A DNA stretch of 64,000 bases from an uncultured Spirochaetota bacterium (GTDB taxonomy: Bacteria; Spirochaetota; B62-G9; DRHN01). The DNA is taken from assembly GCA_964460545.1 (NCBI GenBank), contig CAYWUT010000001.1, forward strand, positions 21,320 through 85,319. Direction: 5' to 3'. A program made the translations under genes and the position numbers. The notes beneath the pieces are model-generated. The model was not told the origin of the DNA. It saw nothing but the letters and a program-made list of their open reading frames with translations, and ran no database searches. Positions 4,162 to 41,960 of the stretch are shown piece after piece (positions within the stretch are counted from its first letter, which is position 1; each line of letters starts with the position of its first letter).

Positions 4162-4223
4162 GGACGATATATGCCGGGCCGTTTCGAGCGCCGGATCATC
4201 TGAAAAGGACAGCGTTACAAGGT

Positions 4224-5168
4224 TCACACTTTTTCCCGGAAAGAAGGCATTACGTATTTCTCGACATACCCCTTTACGAAACCGGATGAGAGGGAAAGCC
4301 AGGAACAGGTAAGACCGGCCAGGGGCTCGGACAGCGCAAGACCCGCGGCCTCGGCCGCACCGATCTTGAAGAGCCGCCTGCACTCAGCTGAGGGCCATAT
4401 CTTCTCGAGCTCCCCGAACAGGGGATAGAAGAGGCGGCGCGCCTTCAGGGACTGCCGGCGCAGATCACGGACCAGATCATTAATGACCAGCGGCTTCGCC
4501 TCCTCGATCGCCCCGATAAACCGCTGCTCTCCGTGCCAGAGAGCCCAGCCGACCATACGCTCGTAGTTCAGGTGATAATTCGATACGACCGTCTGCAGGG
4601 TTCCGGGGTACGGGAGATTCCTCAAAAAAAATCCCTCCGTAAAGGGCTTCTGATGAACCGGAGTCAAGCAGTCCTCCATGTAATGAAGGGCCCGTGCCGC
4701 AAACCGAAGGGTCCAGTAATCGTCTCCTTCCCTTTTAACCCGCTGTGCCGCTCCGTGATAGTAGCGGGCCCGCTCCGCGACACATCCCGCTTTAATCGAA
4801 AACAGATGGAAATCCAGGTGCCTGTATCCCTGGCTTCCTCCGGTCAGCCCCTGAAAAGCCGAGAGGGATAACCCTGAGTCCATTCCCCAGTCGGGCTCGG
4901 CCGAGTAGAGCGCCAGGACCTCCAGCGCATCAACCTCGCCTCCCGTCGGGGCGCTATAACGCACGTAGTCGCCGTAATACTCGTTCTCATCGTACTGTTC
5001 GTTCCGGGAGTCGACGGTCGGTCTTCCGCCCTCTCTCATCTGTGGAACGTAATCCGGATTGAGCGGCTCGGTATCGGCGTTTTTATTAGTAAAATCCGTG
5101 ATGCGCACCCGTGCTCGAAGACCGCATGTACGCGCGGCACTGTATGTCAGGACATCGTGGCCTATCAT
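4224..5168 (-). CDS. zinc-dependent phospholipase C / S1-P1 nuclease superfamily protein
   Basis: The motif ARALHYMEDCLTPVHQKPF matches the Zn-binding H-Y-x-x-D-x-x-x-P-x-H signature of bacterial Zn-PLC (alpha-toxin AMHYFGDIDTPYHP) and P1 nuclease. A 4-bp overlap (ATGA) joins it to the upstream TPR gene. Confidence 0.45.
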   Translation of the reverse strand: MIGHDVLTYSAARTCGLRARVRITDFTNKNADTEPLNPDYVPQMREGGRPTVDSRNEQYDENEYYGDYVRYSAPTGGEVDALEVLALYSAEPDWGMDSGLSLSAFQGLTGGSQGYRHLDFHLFSIKAGCVAERARYYHGAAQRVKREGDDYWTLRFAARALHYMEDCLTPVHQKPFTEGFFLRNLPYPGTLQTVVSNYHLNYERMVGWALWHGEQRFIGAIEEAKPLVINDLVRDLRRQSLKARRLFYPLFGELEKIWPSAECRRLFKIGAAEAAGLALSEPLAGLTCSWLSLSSGFVKGYVEKYVMPSFREKV

Positions 5169-6058
5169 TGGACGGCGGATCCCCTTCGGTCCCCTATGAC
5201 GTCGAGCGGGGGTGCGGGGATGAGATCGAGCATGGCGTTTCGCATCTCGACGGCGGTAACCGCGTTGCGCTGCAGGGCCGCGTTCACGCCGCCGTATATA
5301 TTCGCCCCGTAAGCCGTCACTCCGATCACGATGAAGAGCGCCGCGAGTACGGGAATACCGAGTACGACCGAGAGAACCGCCGCTCCGGCCAGTCCGCCGT
5401 TTATGAAAAAACTCCGAATCCCGTCCATGGTCCTGCCCGCATAGATATGACCCATTCCCGGGACGACCGAGAGGATCCCCGCAACGGCCGGATGTTTTTG
5501 ACTCGTCTCCGACGCCCGGATGAGCAGCACCTCCAGTTCCGGCACGAAACCGTCATTCATCCGCGCGTCTTCAATGAACTGCAGAGCACCCTCCCAGTCG
5601 AATTCTTCTATGAGCAGAGCGGTCCGCATCGCATCCATATATCCTCCGAGAACGGGGCCGGGCTCGGGGTATTCGGCGAAAAAACGATCGCGGGCCAGGA
5701 GAAAATCATTCGTATGCTTCTGTCTGAAAAAGATGTTTGCGATCTGAAAGAGGGACATCCTCCGTAAATCTTTATCATTACCGCTTTCATAAAGAAGCGT
5801 CTCGAGCTTCATGAGCCCGGAAACCGCCTCCCTGTATCTCCCCGATTGTACATCGGCCATCGCGCCGTAATACCGCGCGCGGTCGGCGAACCCGTGGTCC
5901 GGGTTCACATAAACGAAACGTTCGAATTCGACCGCAGCGGCTTCAAACCTCCCGGACCGGAAGAGAATGAGGGCGAATGACGGGTCGGTCTGGCCCAACG
6001 CCGTTATCCGGACGAGGAAGCAGAGGAGCGCGAGGGCAGTTGTCTTCCGGAGTATCAT
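5165..6058 (-). CDS. TPR-repeat protein with N-terminal signal peptide and C-terminal transmembrane segments
   Basis: N-terminal hydrophobic signal (ALALLCFLVRITALG), TPR-like AxxYY helical repeats, and a C-terminal stretch of hydrophobic helices (GLAGAAVLSVVLGIPVLAALFIVIGVTAYG). A 4-bp overlap joins it to yidD. Confidence 0.45.
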   Translation of the reverse strand: MILRKTTALALLCFLVRITALGQTDPSFALILFRSGRFEAAAVEFERFVYVNPDHGFADRARYYGAMADVQSGRYREAVSGLMKLETLLYESGNDKDLRRMSLFQIANIFFRQKHTNDFLLARDRFFAEYPEPGPVLGGYMDAMRTALLIEEFDWEGALQFIEDARMNDGFVPELEVLLIRASETSQKHPAVAGILSVVPGMGHIYAGRTMDGIRSFFINGGLAGAAVLSVVLGIPVLAALFIVIGVTAYGANIYGGVNAALQRNAVTAVEMRNAMLDLIPAPPLDVIGDRRGSAVQ

Positions 6059-6441: not shown

Positions 6442-6569
6442 ATCCGGTATGGTAGTATCCGCACCGGTAAAAATCAACAAACTTATTGAACACCGGCGCA
6501 CGGGAGCAGTATAATGCAGGTAACGGATATCAGGGACATCCACCGCACGTTCGAAAACGGAGTCTGAAC

Positions 6570-7196
6570 ATGGACAGGGACATGCTCTTTCAAAAATACG
6601 GACAGGTTGTTGAACCGGGACGGATCATATTCAAGGAAGGTGAGCCGGGAGAAACGATGTGCATCATACAGAAAGGCCGGGTAAAGATAACAAAACGCGT
6701 CGGCCAGATCGAGAAAATCCTCATGATTCTGAATAAGGGCGACTTCTTCGGTGAGATGGCCATCATTACCCAGACGCCGAGAACGGCTACCGCATCCGCG
6801 ATAGACACATGCGAGCTCCTGATGTTCAACCGCCAGGGTTTCACGAGCATGATAAGCAAGAACACGAATATTGCGATGAACATCATCGAAAAGCTCTGTC
6901 TGCGCCTCGAAAAGGCGGACAACCAGATACGCGACCTCGCGAAACGGGACATCAAGTCTCTCGTTATCAGCGCTCTCAATGATTTCAGGAAATCAACAAA
7001 AACCGGAGAAAGGGACACCGTCCTCTACGGTGAGTCCGTCAGGCACATCGCGGAACAGACCTCATCGACCGCGGAGGAGGTCGAAACCCAGTTAAAACGC
7101 CTCATCGAGTCAGGCCTCCTTTCAATGCATGAGAACACGCTTCACATCGTCAAACCGGGTGAACTCGACGTGCTTGCAGGGTACCTGGAGAAGTAG
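6570..7196 (+). CDS. cyclic-nucleotide-binding domain protein (Crp/Fnr-like regulator)
   Basis: cNMP-binding beta-roll motifs (IFKEGEPGETMCIIQKGRVKI ... GDFFGEMAI). Start taken at MDRDMLF (ATG 6570). Confidence 0.55.
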   Translation: MDRDMLFQKYGQVVEPGRIIFKEGEPGETMCIIQKGRVKITKRVGQIEKILMILNKGDFFGEMAIITQTPRTATASAIDTCELLMFNRQGFTSMISKNTNIAMNIIEKLCLRLEKADNQIRDLAKRDIKSLVISALNDFRKSTKTGERDTVLYGESVRHIAEQTSSTAEEVETQLKRLIESGLLSMHENTLHIVKPGELDVLAGYLEK

Positions 7197-7204
7197 GAAA
7201 CCTC

Positions 7205-7708
7205 ATGGACCGCTGCCTCATATGCCGGGAAATGAATGAGAGAGACCTCGATGATGTCATGCGCATCGAGAGGGCGGTTTTCAAGCGCCCCTGGACCGAG
7301 GAGTTCTTCAGGCTGATACTCTCGGATATGAACAATTATATCATTACGCTGAGAGATCGCGATCTCATCGGGTACGGCGGCTATCATCTCCTGAAAAACA
7401 GCTCGAATTTTCTTCATATACAAAAAACCTATCCGAGAATCATCCACCTCATCAGCATCGCCATCAACCCCGGCTTTCAGCACAGGGGTTTCGGCACCAT
7501 GCTCATGAATATGCTCATGAATGATGCGCTGTCGAAGAAAGCCGGATACTGCTACCTCGAAGTTCGTCCCTCGAACATGAGAGCACTCTCCTTCTACCAG
7601 TCCCGGTCCTTTTCCATTATCGGCTTCATAGAGAATTACTACGCGCAGGAGCACGAAAACGCCTATGTCATGGGGAAGGAGATTACTCCCAGGCTGAACC
7701 GGTTATAA
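7205..7708 (+). CDS. GNAT family N-acetyltransferase (RimI-like)
   Basis: GNAT acetyl-CoA motif (IAINPGFQHRGFGTMLM) and a RimI-like length of 167 aa. Confidence 0.6.
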   Translation: MDRCLICREMNERDLDDVMRIERAVFKRPWTEEFFRLILSDMNNYIITLRDRDLIGYGGYHLLKNSSNFLHIQKTYPRIIHLISIAINPGFQHRGFGTMLMNMLMNDALSKKAGYCYLEVRPSNMRALSFYQSRSFSIIGFIENYYAQEHENAYVMGKEITPRLNRL

Positions 7709-7911
7709 TCGGCCGCTTGAATTCGCCACCCCATTCACCGTTATACCCGTAATGACGCCTCGATCATTCAGCCCCGTTCGCGGGCGCGGCTGCGGGCGCG
7801 AATGGCGTCCAGTGAATTTCAACCTGTGTGGTATGAATGACGAGATGGAAGGTCCCCGCGGTCAAACCGGCCGGCGGTCATGGATCGCCGGCCGTCTTCA
7901 TGCGGATAAGC

Positions 7912-8958
7912 TCAGGCAACCGTGACCGTTTTATCGAGATACACGTCCTGTATGGTATTGAGGAGCTTGACACCCTCCTCCATGGGACGCTGGAAAGCCT
8001 TCCTGCCTGAGATGAGTCCCGTGCCGCCGGCACGTTTGTTGATAACTGCCGTCCGAACCGCCTGTGCGAAGTCGTTTTCTCCGGAAGCGCCGCCTGAATT
8101 GATCATACCTGCCCTGCCCATATAACAGCCCATGACCTGGTAACGTGTCAGGTCTATGGGATGGTCGGACGTGAGATCGGAATAGATAAGCTTATGGGTC
8201 TTGCCGAACTTGAGGGCATTGAATCCCCCGTTGCACTCCGCCTGTTTCTGCTTGACGATATCGGCCTCGATGGTGGCGCCGAGATGGTTCGCCTGGTTCG
8301 AAAGATCGGAAGCGAGGTGATAATCCGTCCCCTCGTGCTTGAAAGCATTGTTTCTCAAATAGGCCCAGAGAACGGTAAACATTCCGAGACTGTGCGCATA
8401 CTCGAACGCCTCGGTGATCTCGACGATCTGCCTGCTCGATTCCTCGGAGCCGAAGTAGACCGTGGCGCCGACGGCAACAGCACCCATGTTGAATGCCTGG
8501 TCCACGCTCGCGAAGAGAACCTGGTCGAACTTGTTCGGATAGGTCAGAAGCTCGTTGTGATTGATCTTCACGATAAACGGAATCTTAAACGCGTATTTCC
8601 GCGCCACTGAACCGAGCACCCCCAGTGTCGAGGCGACCGCATTGCATCCCCCCTCAACCGCGAGCTTTACGATGTTTTCAGGATCAAAATAGATCGGATT
8701 CGGTGCGAATGCGCTGCCGGCCGAATGTTCGATACCCTGGTCAACGGGCAGTATAGAGAGATACCCGGTTCCTGCCAGACGACCGTGGCTGAATACGGTC
8801 TGCATATTTCTCAGTACATTGGCCGACCTGTCCGTGTGGACCATAACACGCTCTATGAAATCCGGTCCCGGAAGGTGCAGTAAATCCTTCGATACCATGC
8901 ACTTGTGTTCGAGTAGGTTTTTAGCTTCATCTCCAAGTAGTTGTGAAACTGAACTCAT
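7912..8958 (-). CDS. fbaB: class I fructose-bisphosphate aldolase (DhnA/FbaB type)
   Basis: Near full-length colinear similarity to E. coli FbaB (QLLG..A.NLL.H.CM ... LRNMQT...[22 protein letters not shown] ... [16 protein letters not shown] ... [16 protein letters not shown]) and the same ~348 aa length. Confidence 0.9.
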
Positions 8959-9051: not shown

Positions 9052-10179
9052 TTATCTCCATCTCTTTCGAAGCGGATGAAGTTTCAGCGTTTCCTGTACC
9101 AGATCCGCGATTCCTGCGGCGCCGTTTCTCTCTGCGAGCCGGGAAGCGCTGCACCCCATGGAACGGAGAGTCTTTTCGTCCGAAAGCAGCCGGGTAACGG
9201 CCTCGAAGAGTGATTCTCCGCACAGGTCGTCATCCTGCATGACGACCGCACCGCCGTTTTCCTTAAAAAAGGCGGCGTTGCGCACCTGCTCGCCCCTGCT
9301 CTTGGAACGGGGAAGAGGAACGAGGATTGCAGGTTTTCCCGCACACGCTATTTCAAAGAGAGCACCGGCACCCGCCCTGCTTACGACGATATCGGAAGCA
9401 GCGAGGACATCCCCGATCTCCGCGCCGATAAAGGGAAAACACCGGTACTGCCGCCCGCAAGGCTGCCGCCCGTAAGGCTGTCGCCCGTAAGGCTGCCGCC
9501 CGCCGTCCCCGCACTGATGCACGATGAAGAAGGGAAGATCGCGGCGCGACACCATTTCCCGAACCGCGCTGTTCAGCGATTCGGCGCCGAGACTCCCCCC
9601 GAGTACGGTAACCACCGGCTGACCGGGCTGCACCCCGATAAAACTCCTCCCGCGCAGCGCATCTCCCTCCAGAATGAGCTTGCGCACGGGATTTCCCGTA
9701 TACACGGTTTTTACGTTTCCCAGGCGCTCCGCCGTCTGCGGAAACGAAACACACACCGCTTCCGCAAACCGTGCGATAATGCGGTTTGCAAGTCCGGGAT
9801 CGATATCGCTCTCGTGCGTGATTACCGGTATTCGGAGGAAAGTGGCCGCAAGAACGGGCGGAACGGCGACGAACCCCCCTTTTGAGAAGAGCAGCGAGGG
9901 CCTCTCTCTGCGAAGAATGATGAAGGATTGGACGACCCCGATGATGACGTTGAAGAAATCGGAAAAATTCTTCAGCGAAAAATACCGCCTCAGCTTTCCC
10001 GTTCTGACGGGATGAAAGGGAATGGAGAGCTCCCCGGAGCGTGCTTCCTCAGGTCCGCCTTTCTTCCCGATCCAGAAAAATGCACCGAACCCCCTTCTCC
10101 GCAGCTCGTCCAGGACCGCAATAATCGGATAGATATGCCCCCCGGTTCCTCCGCCCGTTACACCGATCTTGATTTCCAC
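9052..10179 (-). CDS. murG: GT28 UDP-GlcNAc transferase, MurG-like
   Basis: N-terminal G-loop GVTGGGTGGHIYP and overall MurG-like architecture. Carries an internal GRQPY x3 insertion encoded by a 15-bp tandem repeat. The gene stands alone, not in a dcw cluster. Confidence 0.55.
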   Translation of the reverse strand: MEIKIGVTGGGTGGHIYPIIAVLDELRRRGFGAFFWIGKKGGPEEARSGELSIPFHPVRTGKLRRYFSLKNFSDFFNVIIGVVQSFIILRRERPSLLFSKGGFVAVPPVLAATFLRIPVITHESDIDPGLANRIIARFAEAVCVSFPQTAERLGNVKTVYTGNPVRKLILEGDALRGRSFIGVQPGQPVVTVLGGSLGAESLNSAVREMVSRRDLPFFIVHQCGDGGRQPYGRQPYGRQPCGRQYRCFPFIGAEIGDVLAASDIVVSRAGAGALFEIACAGKPAILVPLPRSKSRGEQVRNAAFFKENGGAVVMQDDDLCGESLFEAVTRLLSDEKTLRSMGCSASRLAERNGAAGIADLVQETLKLHPLRKRWR

Positions 10180-10331: not shown

Positions 10332-10814
10332 ATGGAACTGAAATCCGTATCGGTTGAAATTCCGGAGGGTGCGAACGTCATTATCGGACAATCGCATTTC
10401 ATTAAAACCGTGGAGGATATATACGAAGCCGTTATCAATACCGCTCCTTCAATACAATTCGGACTGGCATTCAACGAGGCTTCGGGAGTCTGTCTCGTTC
10501 GAAAAGACGGCAACGATGAGGAGCTCATCCGGCACGCGGTGGACACCGCGCTGAATATCGGCGCGGGCCATATATTCGTTCTTTTCATGAAAGAAGGGTT
10601 CCCCATCCAGGTGCTGCCGGCGGTTCGAAACGTCCGCGAGGTGGTCGGTATATTCTGTGCGACCGCGAATCCCCTCGAGATCATCGTGGCTGAAACCGGG
10701 GGCGGAAGGGGAATCATCGGCGTGGTAGACGGTTCTGCTCCCAGGGGTGTTGAAAAAGAAGACGATAGAAAAGCGAGAATCGATTTATTGAGGAAATTCG
10801 GGTATAAACGCTGA
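10332..10814 (+). CDS. adenosine-specific kinase family (PF04008-like) small protein
   Basis: 160 aa. The N-terminal pattern V.IP.GANVI.GQSHFIKTVED..EA resembles the adenosine-specific kinase family. Assigned from memory of the family only. Confidence 0.35.
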   Translation: MELKSVSVEIPEGANVIIGQSHFIKTVEDIYEAVINTAPSIQFGLAFNEASGVCLVRKDGNDEELIRHAVDTALNIGAGHIFVLFMKEGFPIQVLPAVRNVREVVGIFCATANPLEIIVAETGGGRGIIGVVDGSAPRGVEKEDDRKARIDLLRKFGYKR

Positions 10815-10932
10815 GAGGGAAGCGTCCGTAATCGCATGAATAATTCTGTTTACATGCCCGTCCGGACGCATATAATAAAGGGATATGCGGAAGCCGGGTT
10901 TCGTCCGGAGCCCGGTATGAAAGGAGGGAGCC

Positions 10933-11118
10933 GTGTCTCATCTTCTGGGACAGGTCTTGATGGAATCGGGTATGATAACCATAGATGAGCTGAACGAAGC
11001 GCTGGAGATACAGAAATCCTCCGGACAGAGGCTCGGTGACATTCTCATCAACCTTAATATGATCACGCCTGAAGAGCTGCAAATGGCTCTTGAATTTCAG
11101 GAAGATGCAACTGAGTAG
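10933..11118 (+). CDS. stand-alone MshEN / T2SE_Nter domain protein (61 aa), putative c-di-GMP receptor
   Basis: Strong RBS AAGGAGGGAG 3 bp before the GTG start. Two tandem copies of the 24-residue MshEN motif RLGxxLLxxGLLxxxxLxxxLxxQ (LLGQVLMESGMITIDELNEALEIQ and RLGDILINLNMITPEELQMALEFQ). Confidence 0.6.
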   Translation: MSHLLGQVLMESGMITIDELNEALEIQKSSGQRLGDILINLNMITPEELQMALEFQEDATE

Positions 11119-11143
11119 GTGGTTTGGTGTCCGACCCGGTCCG

Positions 11144-12733
11144 TCAGAGGTAGACCTCTTCACTGCCTATGTTGAGCATCTTGACGATCTTGTTCTTGGC
11201 CTCGAGATAGCTGAGGAAAGCGATGATCTCATCCGGTGTCGTACACTTGAGAAGCCATTCGAAATGCTCCATACGGGCGAATATCTTTGACAGCGAATCG
11301 ACAATTCGATCATAGATCTCACCGAGATACTCGGGCGCGAGAAACGCGAACGCGATGTAAAACCGATCGCTGCCCGGACTCATTTCCACGCCGTCAGGCG
11401 AAAGCCCGATAATGGGCACAATATCATCCACGAAATCCCCGAATGCGTGAAACAGGGCGATGTTCCTTCCGATGGGGGTATGCACGATAATTCCGGTCTG
11501 CATGAGCTCCGCTTCCGCTTTTTCAGGGTTGAGCATCCGTCCCTTCCCCGTCTGTATGATCTCCCTGATGATTTCTTCCCGCTTTACGCCCCTGAGCCTC
11601 GGAATAACGAGATCTTTATGAAACATAAGTGACGCCGTGTAGGGAAGCGGATCGGGCGTGTCTCCTCCCGCATCCGTTTCCGTCTGTTCCAGCATGCGCC
11701 GTTGCGCCCTGTACTCGGGTATCTTGATCATGGGCGGGCGCTCGATACCCCATACTTTCATCTTTTCTATGGAATAGACGTCCCTCACGCCCGTCAAAAC
11801 CTGGAGGGAATCGGTGATGTCCTGAAATATCTCTATCCTCCCCATGTCGTCCGCCCTCTGGAGAAGTATCTTCAGAATCCGGTAGGACATGGACCGGAGT
11901 GATTCGATACTCTGGTTCTTGTGTATGCGAACGTCGAGATCGCACTGGCCCATGATATCGAGACTATAGAGCCGGTTGATATCGATGAGATGGCCCGTTT
12001 CAACTCCGTACCCGGTAAAGAAGGGCAGCTTCTCGAGCAGGTCCCTCCGCCCGGCGTATTCACCGGAGAGCGGCTGGGCGAAACCCGTAAGCTCGGGGAA
12101 GAGAAGATTGAAGAAAGGCCTGACCACCAGTTCCGTAACCCTTCCCCCGCCCGTGTAGTGAATCTCTCCGTGTATCTGAATCGGGCGTTTGTAAAAGGCC
12201 TTTACGTATGAGAGGTGCGGATAGAGAAGAAGCGGTCCGACAAGGCCATAGACGAAACGAGGATGTATATTCGTGATATCCGCGTCAATCCAGCATATAA
12301 TGTCTCCCTTGAGCACATAGAGGCTCTTCCAGAGGTTCTCACCCTTTCCCCTGTACACCCTGTGCTGAGGGAGGATATCCGATGAGTAGTAGAAATCCGC
12401 ACCCGCGCTCCTTGCGACCTCCTCGGTCCTGTCCGTTGATCCCGAATCGATGACCGCTATCTCGTCGAGGAGCGGGTGCTTCTCCGCGAGCTCGCGCCGC
12501 ATGAGCTCGATCTCTTTTCCGACGGTCTTTTCCTCGTTCAGCGTCGGAAAACAGAGGCTTATGCTCAATCCGAGCTCATTCTTTTTTTCAATGAGGCTTT
12601 CGACATCCTTGAACCGCGAGTGATGGAAGGTGTTCCGCTCTATCCATTCCTTTATGTACGAGGGCTTGTCGAGGTCACGGGTAAGGGCCTCCTGTACCTC
12701 GTTCGGACTCTCTTTCTTGTATAATTCCGCCAT
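11144..12733 (-). CDS. gpgS: glucosyl-3-phosphoglycerate synthase (GT81) fused to C-terminal PTS EIIA type-2 (PtsN-like) domain
   Basis: The N-terminal ~330 aa align with mycobacterial GpgS (PTLNEE.TVG ... IAVIDSGSTD.TE ... GKGE.LW.SL...GDI..(W/F)IDADI.N.HP.FV.GLVGPLL). The C-terminal ~150 aa have EIIA-2 hallmarks (PIGRNIALFHA ~ GxAIPH; FYIAFAFLAPE). Confidence 0.7.
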   Translation of the reverse strand: MAELYKKESPNEVQEALTRDLDKPSYIKEWIERNTFHHSRFKDVESLIEKKNELGLSISLCFPTLNEEKTVGKEIELMRRELAEKHPLLDEIAVIDSGSTDRTEEVARSAGADFYYSSDILPQHRVYRGKGENLWKSLYVLKGDIICWIDADITNIHPRFVYGLVGPLLLYPHLSYVKAFYKRPIQIHGEIHYTGGGRVTELVVRPFFNLLFPELTGFAQPLSGEYAGRRDLLEKLPFFTGYGVETGHLIDINRLYSLDIMGQCDLDVRIHKNQSIESLRSMSYRILKILLQRADDMGRIEIFQDITDSLQVLTGVRDVYSIEKMKVWGIERPPMIKIPEYRAQRRMLEQTETDAGGDTPDPLPYTASLMFHKDLVIPRLRGVKREEIIREIIQTGKGRMLNPEKAEAELMQTGIIVHTPIGRNIALFHAFGDFVDDIVPIIGLSPDGVEMSPGSDRFYIAFAFLAPEYLGEIYDRIVDSLSKIFARMEHFEWLLKCTTPDEIIAFLSYLEAKNKIVKMLNIGSEEVYL

Positions 12734-17118: not shown

Positions 17119-18534
17119 TTATGCATAGGATTTTTCACAGAGAAGCAGCTGGTTATGCTCGGGCTTGTTGAACGCCCTCAGTAGTACGGATTTATCGATC
17201 CGGTGTACGGGCGACCCTTCAAGCACTTTTCCGTATATTCCCATCATCCGGGCCCCGTTTTTCTCCAGCGAATACGCGTCTTCTATTATTGTACTGTTCC
17301 GCTCGATCCGTTCCTCATCGATCATCGTATCTCCGGAAACCGGGAGAAAGGGATTGTATTCCTCAAGACGCTTCCGCGCGGACGGCTCCTTAAGACACCG
17401 GACGATCACCCCGCTCTGCAGGTCCTCGCTCAGCGCACCGAAATCGACCCAGCCGCGCGTTCTTATGGAGTCCAGGTAGCCGTCCTCCTCTTCCCGGCGG
17501 ACCTCCAGGCCGTACCGTTCCGCTTTAAGCCGATGGCACGCGCGCCACTTCATCTCGAAGAGGCTGTAATCGACCATATCGAGGGGAATACGGAGCGCGG
17601 TGTAGAGTTGATCGAAGACGATTCCACGGTCGGTAAAATCCCCGCATACATCCGGAAGCAGCCGCCCGAAGAGCTGTCTTTTCCCTGTCCACGGCTCCAA
17701 AAAGGTGAGGCCGAAACCCTCCTTGATACTCGTGGTGATCACGAAGCGGGACCTGCCGAGTATGACGGACAAGTCCGTATCCGTGCCGAGCCCGAAGAGC
17801 ACCGGAAGGCCGTACCGTGAAACGAAACTCCGCCACTCCTCGTAGCTCTGTACATCGAGCATACCCGTCGGCTCAAGGGTCAGGCCGACCGCATCGCCCT
17901 TTTGTATGAAGAGCGAGAGAAGCACCGCCTCTCCCACGTTCTTTCTCCGTATCGCCCTTACCGGGTAAAGCACGATATCCCTGTTTCCATTCCGGGCCCG
18001 AAGAGGCCTGACCGCGTTCGGAAGGAGATGAAGCCCCTCATCCTTTAAACCCGCTTCCCTCAGTATTTTATAATCACGTGAATTGATAACCGCGTAGTGG
18101 CAATCGGAGGGGTACTCTTCGGCCGTATAGTTGTCGGGCCTGCCGTCTTCCGCGAAATCATGAATCTGGAGCAGGACCCGCTCACCGCGGGAGCGTAAAA
18201 TCCGGACCATACGCACGAACTCTTTATTCTTGCCCAGCGTCGGATTGTGTATGTGCAGTATGTCCGCTCCCTCTTTCCACACCGAGCCGATCGAACGCTG
18301 AACATCATCGGCCATCCGTTCCGGGTCGCATCCTTCCCTCCTGTCACGGTCATACCTGAGAGAGGAAACGACCCTGAAGGGCAAGCGAAGATCCTCGTCG
18401 GACGGAGGAGGGGATTCCCCGGTCAGGATGAGCGGCCTGAATCCGGCAAGGCCGGCGGCGGATGCGATCTGGTCCTCAATTACGCGGGTAACGCCTCCCC
18501 GCCGCATATGGTGATGGATAAACGCTACTTTCAT
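17119..18534 (-). CDS. GT-B glycosyltransferase (GT4-like), second copy in locus
   Basis: 471-aa ORF with a GT-B C-terminal motif (SIKEGFGLTFLEPW). Confidence 0.45.
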   Translation of the reverse strand: MKVAFIHHHMRRGGVTRVIEDQIASAAGLAGFRPLILTGESPPPSDEDLRLPFRVVSSLRYDRDRREGCDPERMADDVQRSIGSVWKEGADILHIHNPTLGKNKEFVRMVRILRSRGERVLLQIHDFAEDGRPDNYTAEEYPSDCHYAVINSRDYKILREAGLKDEGLHLLPNAVRPLRARNGNRDIVLYPVRAIRRKNVGEAVLLSLFIQKGDAVGLTLEPTGMLDVQSYEEWRSFVSRYGLPVLFGLGTDTDLSVILGRSRFVITTSIKEGFGLTFLEPWTGKRQLFGRLLPDVCGDFTDRGIVFDQLYTALRIPLDMVDYSLFEMKWRACHRLKAERYGLEVRREEEDGYLDSIRTRGWVDFGALSEDLQSGVIVRCLKEPSARKRLEEYNPFLPVSGDTMIDEERIERNSTIIEDAYSLEKNGARMMGIYGKVLEGSPVHRIDKSVLLRAFNKPEHNQLLLCEKSYA

Positions 18535-33387: not shown

Positions 33388-35055
33388 ATGCTGAGAGGAT
33401 TGAACATGAGAAAAGCTGTGATCGGATTTTTTATACTGGCGCTCCTGACAGGGGCGTATCCGCTCCTCGGCCAGAAAGTCTCCCTGAATTTCGACGAGGT
33501 CGACATCGCCGTCTTTCTTCAAACGATGAGCGAGATTACGGGTAAAAGCTTCGTTGTAAGCGACAAGGTAAAGGGCAAGATTAGTTTCGTCTCGTCGGAG
33601 GATGTTCCCGCATCAAAAGTCTATCCCATCGTTCTCTCCATACTGGAAGCGCGGGGATTCCAGGCCGTGCCCGGCAAGGGCGACATCATACACATCTACC
33701 CGGCGCAGGAAGCGCTGAAGATGAGCGGGCGCATACACTACGGCACCCAGCCCCATCCCCCCGGGGACGAGGGCATCATCACCCACATCATTCCTCTCGA
33801 TTACGCGGATGTCAACAGCGTGATCAACGCAATACGTCCCGCTTTCGGCAATGACATCATTCTCACTCCCTACACGCGGATTAACTCCATTATAACGAGC
33901 GGCAATCCGGAAACCGTCAACCTGATCCTCGATATGGTGGGGTACATGGACACCTCGGTCCCGACCGAAAAGTCGGATATACACATATACAACCTCGAGA
34001 ACTCAGACGCCGTAACCATGGCCAAGACCCTGTCGACCCTGGCGAGCAGCATACAGTCGCGGCAGAGCCAGAAGAAACAGAAGACGCCGGAACAAGAGGA
34101 GGATTTCCTCAGCGACCGCTTCAACGTGGTGGCCAACGAGGAGACCAACTCCGTTATCATAATCAGCGCTCCGGATGACTGGGAAAAGATCGAGAATATA
34201 ATCGTTGAGCTCGACATCAAACGCGACCAGGTGCTCGTCGAGGCGCTCATCCTGGAGATAACGCTGAACGACGACCAGATACTGGGATTCGACTGGAACG
34301 TGCTGGTCGATACGGGTGTCGGGGCGGACGTGGTGGCGGGCTCGAATACCGGCCTCATGGCCGAGGGCCTGCAGACGGGCGGGCTTGCCGGGCTGACGGT
34401 CGGGCTTCTCAGTGGAGACCTGCCCAACGTGTACGCGATTCTCAATGCGAACAAGGAGAAGACGAACCTGAAGATCCTCTCCACTCCTGAAATCGTGACC
34501 GTGGACAATCACGAGGCAACGATCGAGATCGGCGAACAGATTCCGTTTCTCACGAGCTCCCGCGTCGATGAAAACAACAACGTGGTTCAGACCTACGATT
34601 ACAAAAACATCGGGATCACCCTCAAGCTCACGCCCCACATAAACAAGAACGGCTACATAACGATGAACATAAACCAGCAGATAAAGAAGATCGTCGAGGG
34701 CACGAGGGCCCTGGAAAACCCGTCGGTCTTCAACCGCGAGGTGACCTCGAAGGTCACGGTCAGGAACGAACGCACCATCGTCATCGGAGGGCTCATCAGG
34801 GACGATATTACGACGAGCGAGCAGAAGGTCCCGATACTGGGGGACATACCGATTCTCGGCCTTCTTTTCAGGAAAGAGGTGGAACAGCGGACGAGAACGA
34901 ACCTCCTCATATTCATCACTCCGCACCTTATAACGGACGATACGCAGATCAGCGAGATCACGGAGCAGAAGAGGCGGCAACAGGAAGATTTCGAGGCGAC
35001 GCAGCAGAAGAAAAAGCTACTCAGGCGGAAGGAAGATGAAAAAGACGGAGACTGA
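33388..35055 (+). CDS. gspD: type II secretion system secretin GspD (PilQ/GspD family)
   Basis: Signal peptide, then N0 domain LNFDEVDIAVFLQTMSEITGKSFVV. C-terminal secretin domain (LSTPEIVTVDNHEATIEIGEQIPF...VIGGLIRD...VPILGDIPILGLLFR). Confidence 0.85.
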   Translation: MLRGLNMRKAVIGFFILALLTGAYPLLGQKVSLNFDEVDIAVFLQTMSEITGKSFVVSDKVKGKISFVSSEDVPASKVYPIVLSILEARGFQAVPGKGDIIHIYPAQEALKMSGRIHYGTQPHPPGDEGIITHIIPLDYADVNSVINAIRPAFGNDIILTPYTRINSIITSGNPETVNLILDMVGYMDTSVPTEKSDIHIYNLENSDAVTMAKTLSTLASSIQSRQSQKKQKTPEQEEDFLSDRFNVVANEETNSVIIISAPDDWEKIENIIVELDIKRDQVLVEALILEITLNDDQILGFDWNVLVDTGVGADVVAGSNTGLMAEGLQTGGLAGLTVGLLSGDLPNVYAILNANKEKTNLKILSTPEIVTVDNHEATIEIGEQIPFLTSSRVDENNNVVQTYDYKNIGITLKLTPHINKNGYITMNINQQIKKIVEGTRALENPSVFNREVTSKVTVRNERTIVIGGLIRDDITTSEQKVPILGDIPILGLLFRKEVEQRTRTNLLIFITPHLITDDTQISEITEQKRRQQEDFEATQQKKKLLRRKEDEKDGD

Positions 35056-36760
35056 GAGAAAGTCTTTTCTGGGGCTCAGGTTCGGCGAGATCCTTCTGCG
35101 AATGGGAAGAATCGACGAAGAGGATCTGGAGTCACTGATCGCCGCACGGAAAAACGTGCGTACCCGGATCGGCGAATTCCTGCTCCAGCGGGGAGTCATA
35201 TCCGAAGACGACGTGCTCCGCACCCTCTCCGCGCAGCTCGGAATAGAGTACAGGGAGGACCTCCTCCTTCGGCACTCCGTCGTCATCGCGGAAAACCTGC
35301 CCAGACACTATATCAAGAAATACAACGTCCTCATCCTGAGCGATTCCGGAGATTTCGTGGAGGTCGCGATAAACGACCCCTTCCAGTTCGATGTGGTCGA
35401 GAATATCAGGGTGCTGACCGGCAAGGACGTGCAGCTCGTCCTCGGCAAGAAGCTCGATATAATGAAGCTCTCGGATATGCTCGCCGGCGAGGACGGTGAG
35501 AGCGCCGACCAGGTCATAGAGGACATGATGGGCGGGGAGGGGGGCATCGAGATACTGGGCGAGATAAACGAGACCGGAGAGGACATGCTCGACCTCGCCA
35601 ATGAAGCGCCCATAATCAAGCTCGTCAACCTCATGATAACCGAGGCCCTCAAATCCCGGGCCAGCGACGTTCACGTGGAGCCGAGCGAAGAGGGGATAGC
35701 GGTTCGGTACCGTATCGACGGTGTCCTCTACAACGTGCTCTCCCCACCGAAGAAATATCAGCAGGCCATCGTTTCGAGAATCAAGATCATGTCCAATCTC
35801 AACATAGCGGAGAACCGGCTTCCACAGGACGGCCGCATAAAGGTCAAGTACGGCACGTCAGACGTGGACATACGCGTTTCCATAGTCCCCTCTGTGGTGG
35901 GCGAGCGCGTCGTCATGCGGCTTCTCGTCAAGGACGAGCGGCGCTTCAACCTGGACAAGCTCGGCATGCGCGAGGACCTCGTGGAGTCGATGCGCTCCCT
36001 GCTCGGATCGCCGAGCGGCATCATCATCGTATCCGGTCCGACGGGAAGCGGAAAGACAACCACGCTCTACGCCGCGATCCGCGAGATCAACACGCCCGAG
36101 CGGAACATCATTACGATCGAGGACCCGGTGGAATACCGGATACAGGGCATCAGCCAGATACAGGTCAACAGCAAGATAAACCTGACCTTCGCGAACGGGC
36201 TCAGGTCCATACTGAGGCAGGACCCCGAGGTGATCATGGTGGGCGAGATACGCGACCGCGAAACCTCGGAAATAGCGATACAGGCCTCGATGACGGGGCA
36301 CCTCGTTTTCTCAACGGTGCACACGAACGACGCGGCCAGCGGAATCGTCCGCCTCATCGACATGGGCATCGAGCCCTATCTCATCGCCTCCACCGTTATC
36401 TGCTTCCTCTCGCAGCGGCTCGTCCGCGTGCTCTGCCCCCACTGCCGCGAGCCGGTCCGGATCGATCCCGAGGTGCTCCGCAGGGAGAATATCGATCCCG
36501 ACAGATTCGAGAAGGATGTGTTCAAACCCGTGGGGTGCACCAAGTGCCAGAACACCGGGTACCACGACCGGGTCGGCATATACGAGATAATCAGGTTGAA
36601 CGACGAGGTACGGCGCATGATCGTCGAAAAGCTCGACGCCGCCACCATCAGGGACCGCTGCATCGAGGCGGGCATGCGCACCATGATGGACGACGGCATC
36701 CAGAAGGTGCTGGACGGCGTCACATCGCTCGAGGAAGTAGTGCGGGTCATCAGGGAATAA
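35036..36760 (+). CDS. gspE: type II secretion / type IV pilus assembly ATPase GspE (MshE-like) with N-terminal MshEN repeats
   Basis: Walker A GPTGSGKTT, Asp box, His box, and tetracysteine CPHC...CTKC. N-terminal T2SE_Nter repeats (LRFGEILLRMGRIDEEDLESLIAARKN; RIGEFLLQRGVISEDDVLRTLSAQLG). Its start overlaps the gspD end by 20 bp. Confidence 0.88.
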   Translation: MKKTETERKSFLGLRFGEILLRMGRIDEEDLESLIAARKNVRTRIGEFLLQRGVISEDDVLRTLSAQLGIEYREDLLLRHSVVIAENLPRHYIKKYNVLILSDSGDFVEVAINDPFQFDVVENIRVLTGKDVQLVLGKKLDIMKLSDMLAGEDGESADQVIEDMMGGEGGIEILGEINETGEDMLDLANEAPIIKLVNLMITEALKSRASDVHVEPSEEGIAVRYRIDGVLYNVLSPPKKYQQAIVSRIKIMSNLNIAENRLPQDGRIKVKYGTSDVDIRVSIVPSVVGERVVMRLLVKDERRFNLDKLGMREDLVESMRSLLGSPSGIIIVSGPTGSGKTTTLYAAIREINTPERNIITIEDPVEYRIQGISQIQVNSKINLTFANGLRSILRQDPEVIMVGEIRDRETSEIAIQASMTGHLVFSTVHTNDAASGIVRLIDMGIEPYLIASTVICFLSQRLVRVLCPHCREPVRIDPEVLRRENIDPDRFEKDVFKPVGCTKCQNTGYHDRVGIYEIIRLNDEVRRMIVEKLDAATIRDRCIEAGMRTMMDDGIQKVLDGVTSLEEVVRVIRE

Positions 36761-36969
36761 AGACCTCATTCCGCTTCTATTCTTTTCTCCGGTATAATAA
36801 AGCAAAAGAGGATAAGGCACTTTTTCACGGGAAAACCATAATCGCCGCTCATTTGATTCGGTTGTTGGATCGACCCGGGACAATTCATCTACATTATTCA
36901 AATATATCCCTCATCAGCTATACATCCGGTAAGGCATCCTTGATGAAACCATTTCAAGGAGGCTACAAG

Positions 36970-37507
36970 ATGAGACCGGCACGATTTGCGTCAATCATGA
37001 TTCTTATGGTAACAGCATCGATTATGGCTGAAGGTTGTGCAACTAAAAAGGCAATTACTCATGATGATGCGTCCAACAGATTGATTGGAAAATGGGTAAA
37101 TACTGACAATCCCGATTCCGGAACTTATGTGGTCCTTACACAAGATGCGTCAGATACTGCGGATTTTTTCTCATCCTTAAAAATTGATATTAACATCAAA
37201 AAAAATATGGCAAGTCCATCATTCGGCTGATGATCCGCTTGCAGCCGGTTACGGAACATATACTATAAGAAAATGCTGGGTAGACTTAAAAGAAAATACA
37301 TTCTGTCAGGCTCTGCTGCAATTTGTAAGTGGGAGCAGATTTTATACGTTATTTCAGCTAGATTCATCTAATGCTATTCTTGAATGCAACTGGTATTATG
37401 GTGGGGAAGAAAGATATCCGGAAAAAATCATTGGGCATGATGTTATCATAGAAGATTTTAGATCGTCTGATGTATCACTTTATTATAATATCTACTACGG
37501 AAGGTAA
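36970..37507 (+). pseudogene. AT-rich lipoprotein gene, frameshifted at an A8 homopolymer (two ORF fragments 36970..37230 and 37184..37507)
   Basis: RBS AAGGAGG, then ATG 36970 and a lipoprotein-type signal MRPARFASIMILMVTASIMAEGC. The reading frame switches at CATCAAAAAAAATATGG (about 37196..37212); the downstream fragment continues in a different frame, which would give a single ~180-aa protein. Low GC relative to the flanks. Confidence 0.45.
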
Positions 37508-37563
37508 AAAGCCACGCCCGCTGAAGAGGAGCGTTCCGCCCCCGGGAAAATCCCTCTGACTTC

Positions 37564-37600
37564 TTGACTCAAATATGTTACACGTGTATTATACGTGTAA
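37564..37600 (+). promoter_or_regulatory. sigma70-like promoter TTGACT-17-TATTAT with inverted repeat TTACACGT...ACGTGTAA flanking the -10 (putative TA operator)
   Basis: -35 at 37564..37569 and -10 at 37587..37592 with exact 17-bp spacing. Inverted-repeat arms at 37578..37585 and 37593..37600. RBS AGGAGG at 37605..37610. Confidence 0.5.
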
Positions 37601-37619
37601 ATAGCAGGAGGTGTGCGTG

Positions 37620-37850
37620 ATGCAAAAAAAACTCACCGTTACCATAGACGAGGAAGTCTATAACGGTTTACGGACCGTCATCGGTCCGCGGAAAATCAGC
37701 CGGTTCATCGAAGAGTTGGTCCGCCCGCATGTTGTCAAGAAGAATATGTATGCTGCCTATAAAGAGATGGCTGCTGATAAGGTCAGGGAATCCGAAGCCC
37801 TTGAGTGGGCCGAAGGTACGGTTGGAGATGTAAGTGATGAAAAGAGGTGA
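37620..37850 (+). CDS. type II antitoxin (MazE/PemI-like partner of downstream PemK/MazF toxin)
   Basis: 76-aa ORF ([33 protein letters not shown]...) immediately upstream of, and overlapping, the toxin gene. An autoregulatory-type promoter/operator lies upstream. Confidence 0.6.
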
Positions 37851-38157
37851 AATATGGTGGGTCAATTTTGATACTTCCGTCGGTGGTGAAATCCGTAAAC
37901 AGCGACCTGCCGTCATTGTAAGTAATGATGCCGCCAACCAGTACCTTAACAGAGTCCAAGTCGTACCCCTGACGAGTAGCGTCGGCAAACTCTACCCAAG
38001 CGAATCATACGTAACATTTCGTGGAAAAAAGACCAAGGCTATGTCCGATCAGATTACAACGGTGAGTAAAAAGCGGCTCATCAATCAAGCAGGATCGTTG
38101 TCCACTACCGATATGGAGGGTATAGGCCAGGCTATAACTGTCCAACTGGATCTTTAA
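37834..38157 (+). CDS. mazF: PemK/MazF-family endoribonuclease toxin
   Basis: Canonical N-terminus [33 protein letters not shown]. 107 aa. Its start overlaps the antitoxin stop (GTGATGA). Confidence 0.8.
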
Positions 38158-38456
38158 GGCGGAACAAGCTGTGCGGAGTGGTTTGTCAACCGTAAAATAT
38201 GATGAAACACCATGAGCCGTTGTTAACCGGCGACGAATTTGTTATTAGGGTGAACTTAGATTTTTTCTTTTATACCACTGGGTAGTCATTAAACATGATA
38301 ATCATTTCTATTTTATTTCATTAATTATTGAAGTTCACCTGCAATAGCGTATCTTATATATGTGAAAGCTTCCCATTATATATATTTCTTAAAACTCGAA
38401 ATTCGCTCTATTAATATGTGAGAAGTCTAAAAGAAAATCGAAGGATATAGGGAATA

Positions 38457-39697: not shown

Positions 39698-40603
39698 ATG
39701 AACATACCGTTCGTCAAGATGCAGGGGGCGGGAAACGACTACATTTACCTCGACCTCGTGAAAGAGGAAATCGAACTCGACTTCGCCTCCCTTGCCGCGG
39801 ATATTTCCGACCGGCACTTCGGAGTCGGGGGCGACGGGCTCGTCCTCATCATGAGAAGCGGGGAAGCCGATTTCCGCATGCGGATGTTCAACGCGGACGG
39901 AAGCGAGGCCGAGATGTGCGGCAACGCGGTGCGATGCGTGGGGAAATACGTATACGATTCAGGGTATACCTCCTCAGACACCATCTCCGTACAGACACTC
40001 GCAGGCATAAAACACCTCACCGTTGTCCAAAAAGGCGATGACGCATACATGCACGGCGCATCAATGCTCACGGTCGATATGGGTGAGCCCGTTCTCGACG
40101 GAAAATCCATTCCCGTGAACGTGGATGAAAATCCCGTGCTCGACCTGGAAGTCGAGGGATTCACCGGTACCGCCGTCAGTATGGGCAACCCGCACTTCGT
40201 GATTTTTGTCGACCGGGTAACGGACGATCTCGTTCTGAATCACGGACCCCGAATTGAAGTTGCTCCGGTTTTCCCCAGGAAAGTCAACGTCGAATTCGTT
40301 CAGGTCCTGGATTCCGGCAGCACGGTTCTCCGCGTCTGGGAACGCGGCTCCGGCGAGACGCTGGCATGCGGAACGGGCGCCTGCGCGAGCGTGGTTGCGG
40401 GCGTACTCAACGGGTTCCATTCGAGGGAAGTGTCCGTCAGTCTCCTAGGGGGCGTGCTCCGCATAGCGTGGAATGAAAAAAACAACCGCGTATATTTAAC
40501 GGGACCGGCCGTGGAGGTGTTTCGCGGCACCTTCAATGTACCACGATCCTGTTCTTGCCGTCCTTTTTCGCCCGGTAGAGCGAATCATCCGCCAGCTTCA
40601 TGA
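39698..40603 (+). CDS. dapF: diaminopimelate epimerase
   Basis: Begins MNIPFVKMQGAGNDYIYLD (GNDF/Y motif). Catalytic cysteines MCGNAVRC and LACGTGACA, plus SMGNPHFV. RBS GGAGGA at 39689. The 3' ~70 bp overlap the convergent GGDEF gene. Confidence 0.85.
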   Translation: MNIPFVKMQGAGNDYIYLDLVKEEIELDFASLAADISDRHFGVGGDGLVLIMRSGEADFRMRMFNADGSEAEMCGNAVRCVGKYVYDSGYTSSDTISVQTLAGIKHLTVVQKGDDAYMHGASMLTVDMGEPVLDGKSIPVNVDENPVLDLEVEGFTGTAVSMGNPHFVIFVDRVTDDLVLNHGPRIEVAPVFPRKVNVEFVQVLDSGSTVLRVWERGSGETLACGTGACASVVAGVLNGFHSREVSVSLLGGVLRIAWNEKNNRVYLTGPAVEVFRGTFNVPRSCSCRPFSPGRANHPPAS

Positions 40604-41960
40604 GCTCGTCCATGCTCTTCGTATCCACGGGATATCCGGCGATACCGATGCTGAGCGTCACAGCGATGACCTGTTTTTCAGACGGAACCCTGATCTCCCT
40701 CCCTGAGAAGAGGTCCAGGAGCCTGCGCGCTATCTTCAGGGCCCGCTTTTTTGGGGTTTTCGGAAGTACGATTATGAACTCGTCCCCGCCGTACCGTGCG
40801 GGTATATCGGAGGAACGGACGGAGAGACTCACACTCCTGGCCAGCTCTCTCAGAACAAGGTCGCCCACCTGATGGCCGTAGGTATCGTTGACGATCTTGA
40901 AGTCATCAATATCGAGCATGATGCATGAAAGATGCTCATCGTAACGCCTGGCCTTCTCTATCTCCAGCCGCAATGTCTCCACGAAATGTCTGAAGTTGTA
41001 GAGGCCGGTCATGGAGTCCCGCATGGAGAGGTCCTTGACCTTTTCGTAGAGGATCGTGTTGTGTATCGAAACGGCCAGATGCTTGGATATGCGGACGATT
41101 CGGCCCTCGAAATCGATATGCTCCATTTCCTCAAGACCGGGATCGTTCACATTCAAGACACCGATGGTTTTATCCGCCGATATGAGCGGTACGACACACA
41201 CTTCATTGCTCTTGTACTTTTCCCGCTTTCCCTTCCTGTACCGGGAAGCGCTGAAATCATCAATAAAGAGGGGTTTCTTCGTTTTTAATACCTCGTACAT
41301 GACGCTCTTCTTGTCGATCGGTACAACGAAATTCTGGGGCATATCCTTATGGTTGGAAACGAAGAGCCTGAATTCACGCTCGCCCTCGTCAATGGTAAAA
41401 ATGGTGAAGAGACGGGCTCCGAGAAAAGTTGAAAAACTTTCACCGATAAATGCTTTTTTTAGCTCCGCGTCGAGAAACTGGTTCAGGTCCTGGGTGAAAT
41501 CGGCCTCCTGTGCGAGCATTTCCCTGTTTAGGGAAGCCGAGTCCATAAGCCGGACGAGCTCTTCACCCTTCAGCCGAAGCTCTTCCTCCTCCTCCTTCAG
41601 CTTGAGCATGGAATCGATCTTGGCCGTAAGCACCCGGTAATCGAGGGGCTTCTCCATGAAATCGTTCGCGCCGCACTTGATCGCCCGTATCACGTCCTCA
41701 TCGCGCCGCGAAACGGACAGCGCGATGATCGGAAGACCCGCATGCGGTCCGCCACGCAATTTCTCGCAGACCTCGAAGCCGCTCGTATCTTTCAGCACTA
41801 AATCAACGAGTACGAGACTGATATTATTCCGGGAAAGCAGGGAAAAGGCCTCGGCATCGTCACCCGAGACAAACACCCCGTATCCCCCCTCCTCGAGGTT
41901 CTTTTTGAGGATATTTCGCATGTCGAGGTCATCATCGATGACGAGAATGTTCTTCTTCAT
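40533..41960 (-). CDS. response regulator with REC-GAF-GGDEF architecture (diguanylate cyclase)
   Basis: REC (VIDDDLDMRNIL...LVLVDLVL..SGFEV), central GAF-like region, and GGDEF domain with intact RYGGDEF and upstream RxxD-type I-site context. Confidence 0.8.
   Translation of the reverse strand: MKKNILVIDDDLDMRNILKKNLEEGGYGVFVSGDDAEAFSLLSRNNISLVLVDLVLKDTSGFEVCEKLRGGPHAGLPIIALSVSRRDEDVIRAIKCGANDFMEKPLDYRVLTAKIDSMLKLKEEEEELRLKGEELVRLMDSASLNREMLAQEADFTQDLNQFLDAELKKAFIGESFSTFLGARLFTIFTIDEGEREFRLFVSNHKDMPQNFVVPIDKKSVMYEVLKTKKPLFIDDFSASRYRKGKREKYKSNEVCVVPLISADKTIGVLNVNDPGLEEMEHIDFEGRIVRISKHLAVSIHNTILYEKVKDLSMRDSMTGLYNFRHFVETLRLEIEKARRYDEHLSCIMLDIDDFKIVNDTYGHQVGDLVLRELARSVSLSVRSSDIPARYGGDEFIIVLPKTPKKRALKIARRLLDLFSGREIRVPSEKQVIAVTLSIGIAGYPVDTKSMDELMKLADDSLYRAKKDGKNRIVVH

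Follow-up and report, generated by a model that had tools for sequence, protein, structure and literature searches.

Single-domain PilZ adaptors are small cytoplasmic receptors for cyclic di-GMP (c-di-GMP) that carry no output domain and bind their partners in a ligand-dependent manner. Only three protein domains that serve as c-di-GMP receptors are widespread (PMC12448109), and one of them, MshEN, has been studied almost solely for its cis-regulatory role in ATPases and glycosyltransferases. In its full form (PF05157, MshEN/T2SSE_N) it is about 145 amino acids (aa) long and consists of an N- and a C-subdomain; in MshE of Vibrio cholerae the N-subdomain itself binds c-di-GMP, the isolated fragment VcMshEN_N 1-62 having a dissociation constant (KD) of 0.35 µM (PMC5013675). 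Isolated N-subdomains of 57-65 aa do fold, and an engineered PilF fragment spanning residues 9-65 binds c-di-GMP at 0.7 µM, whereas extension of the N-terminal helix abolishes binding (PMC12002112). In the architecture table of Wang et al. 2016, proteins made of MshEN_N alone appear solely as a tandem, (MshEN_N)2, in Cyanothece cce_1044 (PMC5013675), and full-text literature searches returned no description of a single-module MshEN_N protein. Here we consider a 61-aa protein encoded in a 64,000-nucleotide (nt) stretch of DNA (the window) from an uncultured Spirochaetota bacterium (assembly GCA_964460545.1, contig CAYWUT010000001.1, positions 21,320 to 85,319 of the forward strand). We suggest that it acts as a free-standing single-domain c-di-GMP adaptor, a mechanism that, taken as a whole and judged from sequence, structural model and analogy, we moderately favour.

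The open reading frame (ORF) starts with GTG and comprises exactly 61 codons and a stop (Table 1); its product is laid out as 3 residues, a 53-residue MshEN_N module and a 5-residue acidic tail. NCBIfam model NF053729 ([quoted passage not shown]; 53 positions) matches it with 70 bits against a cutoff of 38 (E 1e-19), aligning aa 5-56 to model positions 2-53, and phmmer against the PDB retrieves Thermus thermophilus PilF (E 1e-16) and V. cholerae MshE (5HTL; E 2e-6). Two tandem motifs of the form (R/K/L)LGxxLLxxGLLxxxxLxxxLxxQ are present with 5-residue spacing, the two 24-residue repeats being identical at 12 of 24 positions, and because of the NF053729 and phmmer scores this resemblance is far above chance. 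The first-pass annotation of the window had recognised both repeats and the Gly-to-Asn change in the second (N42), but left the Arg-to-Leu change at the head of the first (L4) unmentioned. It had also named a T2SE_Nter/MshEN profile search as a check, and here the outcome is divided: a Pfam scan of the 61-mer gave no PF05157 match at E<=0.1, which taken literally speaks against the assignment, whereas NF053729 matched well above its cutoff. The missing Pfam match is uninformative, because on the GspE protein encoded in the same window PF05157 covers only residues 68-154, downstream of the c-di-GMP motif, and it is NF053729 that covers residues 15-67. The alpha/beta C-subdomain (MshEN_C/T2SSE_N1) is absent altogether, as the protein stops 5 residues past helix 4.

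An AlphaFold2 model built on 36 homologues (predicted local distance difference test score, pLDDT, 87.9) has helices at residues 5-11, 17-30, 34-40 and 46-58, and the predicted fold is the two-repeat four-helix bundle known from the N-subdomains of MshE and PilF. Its top Foldseek match in the PDB is c-di-GMP-bound V. cholerae MshE (5HTL; TMq 0.87, root-mean-square deviation (rmsd) 0.7 Å over 55 columns, 38% identity), followed by c-di-GMP-bound structures of PilF GSPII-B (8PDK, 8PE0); across these structures TMq is 0.81-0.87, rmsd 0.7-1.2 Å and identity 36-41%. Structure prediction, which the first-pass annotation had proposed as a check, thus gave a confident bundle whose nearest structure in the PDB is a ligand-bound one. 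The protein shares with MshE and PilF GSPII-B the two 24-residue motifs, the 5-residue linker and the contact residues, but corresponds to the subdomain alone, without MshEN_C/T2SSE_N1 and without the ATPase. It differs from them further in the Leu that replaces Arg/Lys at the start of motif I, in the Asn that replaces the turn Gly, in a net charge of about -10 with an acidic tail, and in many additional invariant residues outside the motif. By profile, motif, predicted fold and contact residues, the gene product belongs to the MshEN_N module family.

The residues that contact the ligand in VcMshE can be followed one by one (Table 1), subtraction of 5 from the VcMshE number giving the number in the 61-aa protein, with family conservation scored in a 36-sequence alignment in which L9 and L38 are also invariant. 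Only two positions of the site deviate, the Arg-to-Leu change at the first position of motif I and the Gly-to-Asn change in the turn between helices 3 and 4. All eight positions whose substitution is blamed for the loss of binding in Xanthomonas campestris XpsE (PMC5013675) are intact. Nor is L4 a defect, because PilF GSPII-B with Leu at the same position (K167L) binds c-di-GMP at 2 nM, against 6 nM for the wild type and 150 nM for K167R (PMC11731258), and the PilF authors have widened the motif consensus to (R/K/L)LG (PMC11731258). In the small family just 3 residues precede motif I, so that there is almost no N-terminal extension. The retention of one putative c-di-GMP site, formed by two Leu triangles, the LG backbone amides and two Gln, is directly supported by the sequence, and we consider it probable, from sequence and model together, that the 61-aa protein binds c-di-GMP.

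About 70 homologues were found, 52-107 aa long and mostly 58-72 aa, from loci that include 12 in GTDB genomes and 20 in Joint Genome Institute (JGI) metagenomes; the identical 61-aa protein occurs on several independent metagenome contigs, and all homologues with a named source belong to metagenome-assembled genomes of uncultured Spirochaetota. Across 13 loci (the window and the 12 GTDB loci) the median ratio of nonsynonymous to synonymous substitution (dN/dS) is 0.07, with dN of 0.09-0.25 and saturated synonymous sites, and differences at codon positions 1, 2 and 3 number 828, 420 and 2322. Orthologues are 64-80% identical to the window copy, on a par with the nearby DeoC (80%) and GpgS (70-75%) and above the neighbours MurG and the HAD hydrolase (about 50%); because dS is saturated and those neighbours stand at 50% identity, this conservation indicates that large parts of the protein outside the motif are constrained as well. 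A length of 58-63 aa together with a Shine-Dalgarno sequence recurs in more than 30 loci, and a GGAGG- or GGGGG-like element precedes the start at equal spacing in most orthologous loci; the near-consensus Shine-Dalgarno attributed to the window copy is indeed there. The promoter-like site lies 56 nt 5' of the start codon, within the 118-nt gap behind the upstream gene, and comparable sites are found 5' of the orthologues in L001, L002 and L007. The stop-to-stop frame opens just four codons ahead of the start. An Rfam scan of the entire window gave no RNA match, riboswitches included, in the vicinity of the gene, and folding of its 5' untranslated region and of the 25-nt convergent junction gave no structure beating shuffled sequence and no intrinsic terminator. 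From its sequence record, the ORF is a real gene that is under strong purifying selection and independently translated, and the survey of homologous small ORFs advised by the first-pass annotation has in this way returned a family with a fixed position in the genome.

What sets this family apart is its surface. Net charge ranges from -8 to -13.5, against -1 to -3 in three reference MshEN_N segments. When the family is set beside 371 MshEN_N domains drawn from multi-domain proteins, both show conservation of the motif positions, while Q7, E11, M14, D18, E22, E25, K28, S29, S30, Q32, T45, E47, E48, M51 and F55 are near-invariant in the small family alone. A profile search of 1.84 billion representatives recovered 8620 MshEN_N-containing proteins, of which the top scorers are multi-repeat proteins, some consisting of MshEN_N modules only (P0067, 394 aa); single-module small proteins fall into about five clusters at 50% identity. 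Like these tandem proteins and cce_1044, the 61-aa protein has MshEN_N and no recognised output domain, but where cce_1044 and P0067 carry two to eight matched repeats it has one, the smallest possible number. Matches in a plasmid collection are mostly unannotated, the annotated ones being NfrB-type glycosyltransferases and one PulE-type ATPase. In a phage collection there were two, both on unannotated "Bacteriophage sp." contigs; the one that was translated is a full PilB/GspE-type ATPase and was rejected as a small ORF. At least two of the genomes that carry an orthologue have a diverged second paralogue elsewhere as well (loci L011 and L012).

The window also holds other parts of a c-di-GMP system, as the first-pass annotation had stated: a GspE ATPase whose N-terminal MshEN repeats score 46.8 bits on NF053729, and a REC-GAF-GGDEF diguanylate cyclase in which the active site and the inhibitory site are both intact (Table 1). 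Because this GGDEF cyclase is intact, c-di-GMP is expected to be made in the host organism. Profile, predicted fold, contacts, homologues and the cyclase all agree with the candidate receptor first proposed from the letters of the window. We posit that the 61-aa protein would bind one c-di-GMP monomer per molecule, with an affinity in the sub-micromolar range or tighter, the ligand being supplied by enzymes such as this cyclase, and that, because the protein has no output domain, the signal would be relayed by c-di-GMP-dependent protein-protein contact, as with single-domain PilZ adaptors. The partner would probably dock on the invariant acidic surface (E11, D18, E22, E25, E47, E48, M51, F55 and the acidic tail) and, alternatively or in addition, on the ligand face, which in MshE is covered by MshEN_C. 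The sole candidate partner by position is the neighbouring GpgS-EIIA/glucosylglycerate locus. The PilZ comparison is the closest functional analogy only: PilZ is a beta-barrel and not a four-helix bundle, there is no homology, and c-di-GMP is held there by RxxxR and DxSxxG and not by Leu triangles and LG amides.

Several observations weigh against this proposal. The turn Gly, which has been described as needed for the turn between helices 3 and 4 (PMC5013675) and is Gly in 82% of generic domains, is replaced by N, D or E in most members of the small family. The basic patch at the N-terminus of VcMshE (K5, R7, K8, R9) has no counterpart in the family, whose strong acidity could lower affinity for a dianionic ligand, and the Asp108 contact made by MshEN_C is missing. 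The conservation of the surface is partly to be expected from a narrow clade. As for a partner, the genome context of orthologues and paralogues yields no conserved partner gene, and the adjacency of GpgS-EIIA is weak functional evidence, because unrelated genes, deoC and murG among them, show the same degree of synteny; gene order is kept throughout the DeoC-MurG-kinase-small-GpgS region in this clade, and the adjacency may reflect inheritance rather than function.

Other interpretations of the gene can be envisaged. If the ORF were there by chance, or were the 5' end left over from a broken gspE/pilB gene, as the JGI label "PilB" would imply, this would explain why it is so short, why longer antisense ORFs overlap it (e.g., 10714-11163 on the minus strand) and why automated labels read PilB or hypothetical protein; yet the dN/dS value, the concentration of change at third positions and the recurrent length and Shine-Dalgarno tell against it, the antisense ORF just named is present in only 1 of the 12 clustered GTDB loci, and there is no ATPase remnant downstream, where the next gene lies on the opposite strand, which is why the small gene cannot be a fragment of a longer one. 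The Shine-Dalgarno, codon-position and conservation data effectively refute this idea, to which we leave next to no credence. A c-di-GMP buffer or sponge, which without any partner would sequester the ligand and thereby impose a threshold or a delay on other receptors such as the MshEN_N of GspE, strikes us as rather unlikely. It has in its favour the minimal ligand-binding module without output domain, the tight in vitro binding by isolated MshEN_N (PMC5013675), a genome context that reveals no partner, and a strong Shine-Dalgarno and near-consensus promoter that suggest high expression. A sponge needs the fold and the contacts only, however, and in this family the acidic tail and about 15 further non-motif positions are conserved, positions that vary among the 371 generic domains; together with the family's charge they favour an adaptor over a sponge, and the coexistence of two diverged paralogues in at least two genomes fits distinct partners better. 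In the remaining case that concerns the ligand, the MshEN_N fold would be retained without c-di-GMP binding, or with binding that no longer matters, as in XpsE or PilF GSPII-A, the acidic protein serving as a constitutive partner, a decoy or a mimic for a basic protein surface. The extreme acidity, the vanished N-terminal basic patch and the substituted turn Gly would all be at home in such a protein, degenerate non-binding MshEN_N domains are documented (PMC5013675, PMC12002112), and the fold can dock proteins, an example being the PilB-PilZ complex of X. citri, one of the fold matches. We hold this to be distinctly improbable, given that the contact positions mutated in known non-binders are all intact and invariant in the small family, that Leu at the first motif position strengthens binding in PilF (PMC11731258), and that the NF053729 score exceeds that of the window's GspE.

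A special case of the adaptor would be a regulator of the glucosylglycerate locus itself, in which the c-di-GMP-loaded protein would bind GpgS-EIIA, or a different enzyme of this glucosylglycerate/mannosylglucosylglycerate locus, and tune osmolyte synthesis, a split version of cis MshEN-glycosyltransferase fusions like NfrB. The orthologous loci run DeoC(-), MurG(-), PF04008 kinase-like(+), small gene(+), GpgS-EIIA(-), sucrose-phosphorylase-like(+), MggS-like glycosyltransferase family 4 (GT4)(-) and HAD(-). Of 21 such loci with downstream sequence, 18 have gpgS-EIIA tail-to-tail with the small gene, even where two genes are inserted upstream, and in the three that lack an adjacent gpgS-EIIA (L001, L029, L030) the small gene still adjoins, directly at its 3' side, the phosphorylase-like gene of the locus. 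NfrB-type glycosyltransferases, with C-terminal MshEN (E. coli NfrB, Ralstonia megaplasmid homologues), supply the next-best NCBIfam matches (E 1e-8 to 5e-6) and the best plasmid ones (41-43% identity), and such fusions are an established architecture (PMC5013675 Suppl. Table 4), NfrB itself being a glycosyltransferase under established c-di-GMP control (PMC8669469). Against a locus regulator, the small gene and gpgS-EIIA are convergent and not co-transcribed, the functionally unrelated DeoC, MurG and PF04008 genes are just as syntenic, and three loci keep the small gene without gpgS-EIIA beside it. NfrB is a cis fusion of sensor and membrane polysaccharide synthase, whereas here the sensor is a separate gene beside GpgS-EIIA, with which it converges, and GpgS is a soluble small-molecule glycosyltransferase. 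A literature search found no paper tying c-di-GMP to glucosylglycerate regulation, and a fusion (Rosetta-stone) check of the larger MshEN_N proteins gave none with GpgS, EIIA or sugar-phosphorylase domains, the partners there being Hpt, REC, T2SSE ATPase, glycosyltransferase family 2 (GT2) and Ig-like domains. The convergence with gpgS-EIIA noted in the first-pass annotation is thus real, and so is the position beside a compatible-solute locus, but the tie is positional only and does not hold for every locus; that the small protein regulates this locus we regard as unlikely. We would give a poor chance, too, to a ligand-bridged form of the adaptor, in which the four-helix bundle would hold c-di-GMP on one face and leave it exposed at the place that MshEN_C otherwise occupies, the exposed ligand joining with the invariant acidic surface in recruiting a metabolic enzyme, most plausibly GpgS-EIIA. 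Were it true, glucosylglycerate (compatible-solute) synthesis would come under c-di-GMP control, a previously undescribed link of biofilm and motility signalling to osmoadaptation would exist, and trans-acting MshEN_N would gain an output class, none having been described so far.

Table 1. Sequence features of the small MshEN_N gene, its ligand-contact positions matched to VcMshE, and related genes of the window.
Feature	Position	Strand	Remarks
Coding sequence, 61-aa stand-alone MshEN_N protein	10933..11118	+	6.8 kDa, pI ~4.05, net charge ~-10
Shine-Dalgarno AAAGGAGGGA	10920..10929	+	GGAGG core ending 5 nt ahead of GTG
Promoter-like site TTTACA-16 nt-TATAAT	10849..10876	+	11/12 consensus matches, sigma-70-like; consensus match only
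Motif I, LLGQVLMESGMITIDELNEALEIQ, aa 4-27, helices 1 and 2	10942..11013	+	Leu for consensus Arg at first position
Linker KSSGQ, aa 28-32	11014..11028	+	K28, S29, Q32 invariant in small family
Motif II, RLGDILINLNMITPEELQMALEFQ, aa 33-56, helices 3 and 4	11029..11100	+	Turn Gly is Asn42; N/D/E/G family-wide
Acidic C-terminal tail EDATE	11101..11115	+	Glu/Asp-rich in nearly all homologues; low model confidence
VcMshE R9	L4		Family: L, I, Q or P
VcMshE L10	L5		Family: L or I
VcMshE G11	G6		Invariant
VcMshE G18	G13		Invariant
VcMshE L25	L20		Invariant
VcMshE L29	L24		Family: I, L or V
VcMshE Q32	Q27		Invariant
VcMshE R38	R33		Family: K, R or M
VcMshE L39	L34		>=94% conserved
VcMshE G40	G35		Invariant
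VcMshE G47	N42		Family: G, N, D or E
VcMshE L54	L49		Invariant
VcMshE L58	L53		97% conserved
VcMshE Q61	Q56		Invariant or nearly so (>=94%)
PF04008 "adenosine-specific kinase" family gene, upstream neighbour	10332..10814	+	Same strand as small gene
gpgS-EIIA, glucosyl-3-phosphoglycerate synthase fused to phosphotransferase system (PTS) EIIA-2	11144..12733	-	Convergent, 25 nt between stop codons
Type II secretion system ATPase GspE	35036..36760	+	Residues 15-67 (nt 35078-35236) are a second, near-canonical MshEN_N c-di-GMP motif
REC-GAF-GGDEF diguanylate cyclase	40533..41960	-	GGDEF and RxxD I-site intact (RSSD-IPARY-GGDEF)

Around the small gene, further observations can be recorded. The EIIA-2 part of the GpgS-EIIA fusion is C-terminal and EIIA-Ntr-like, the fusion is kept clade-wide at 69-75% identity, and it hints at compatible-solute synthesis under phosphotransferase-type control. 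In one subclade (L007-L010, at about 4170-5960) two plus-strand genes lie between the PF04008 gene and the small gene; by eye they resemble homocysteine-biosynthesis and NIL-4Fe-4S ferredoxin genes, and judging from these sequences a place for PF04008 proteins in a sulfur-amino-acid pathway, rather than as adenosine kinases, would fit. The murG gene (9052-10179, minus strand) contains a 15-bp tandem repeat in 3.7 copies (9448-9503) that encodes GRQPY-like repeats, and MurG is 370 aa long on one otherwise near-identical contig and 375 aa on the others, so that populations appear to differ in the number of repeat copies. A 471-aa ORF (17119-18534, minus strand) that closes the glucosylglycerate locus has no Pfam or NCBIfam match, and partial homologues of it stand at the corresponding place in L005 and L006. 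GspE belongs to a type II secretion/pilus-like cluster at 33388-39668 (GspD secretin, GspE, GspF), with a prepilin peptidase 10 kb further on (49952-50689), and from its near-canonical GspE motif secretion in this spirochaete is probably c-di-GMP-responsive.

The paralogues lie at 5977-6180 in L012 (with 6520-7926) and at 1943-2200 in L011. At 340 nt downstream of the one on CP070841 there is a sigma54-dependent response regulator, with a receiver that weakly matches a VpsR domain, and those on other contigs adjoin IS21- or Mu-type transposase genes; among the paralogue neighbourhoods inspected (L011, L012, the P0057 loci, L035-L040) no neighbour is shared. A recurring upstream ORF of 62 aa, identical where compared (L017, L020, L035) and featureless, was treated as spurious. 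Among the tandem proteins, P0067, P0097, P0147 and P0206 each consist of two or more MshEN_N modules only, P0067 having eight matched stretches, which makes them, on their sequences, potential multivalent c-di-GMP binders. Pfam DUF4388 (PF14332) gives partial matches on the MshEN_N repeats of many proteins, which suggests that it contains a related half-motif, while PF05157, now named "MshEN", overlooks the ligand-binding module and hence any MshEN_N-only protein.

The annotation gap that this exposes is a practical one. With Pfam passing over single-module proteins, the members of the family are labelled "hypothetical protein" at NCBI and "PilB" or "predicted transcriptional regulator" at JGI. 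Neither JGI label could be upheld: at 61 aa the product has no T2SSE (PF00437) match and is followed by gpgS-EIIA on the other strand, and for a transcriptional regulator the sole match is a sub-threshold one to Sta1 (16 bits against a cutoff of 80), the charge of the protein arguing against DNA binding.

We view the 61-aa protein as a minimal architectural variant of a known receptor domain that is confined, as far as seen, to one uncultured spirochaete lineage. A single-module MshEN_N protein would be the MshEN counterpart of the stand-alone PilZ adaptors, and would show that a domain regarded as a cis-acting module can also signal in trans. At 61 residues it is within reach of chemical synthesis, and would make a convenient minimal system for the study of c-di-GMP recognition and for the design of biosensors and sponges. 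Finally, the acidic surface that is specific to this family predicts a partner, and finding that partner would add a c-di-GMP output pathway in uncultured spirochaetes.

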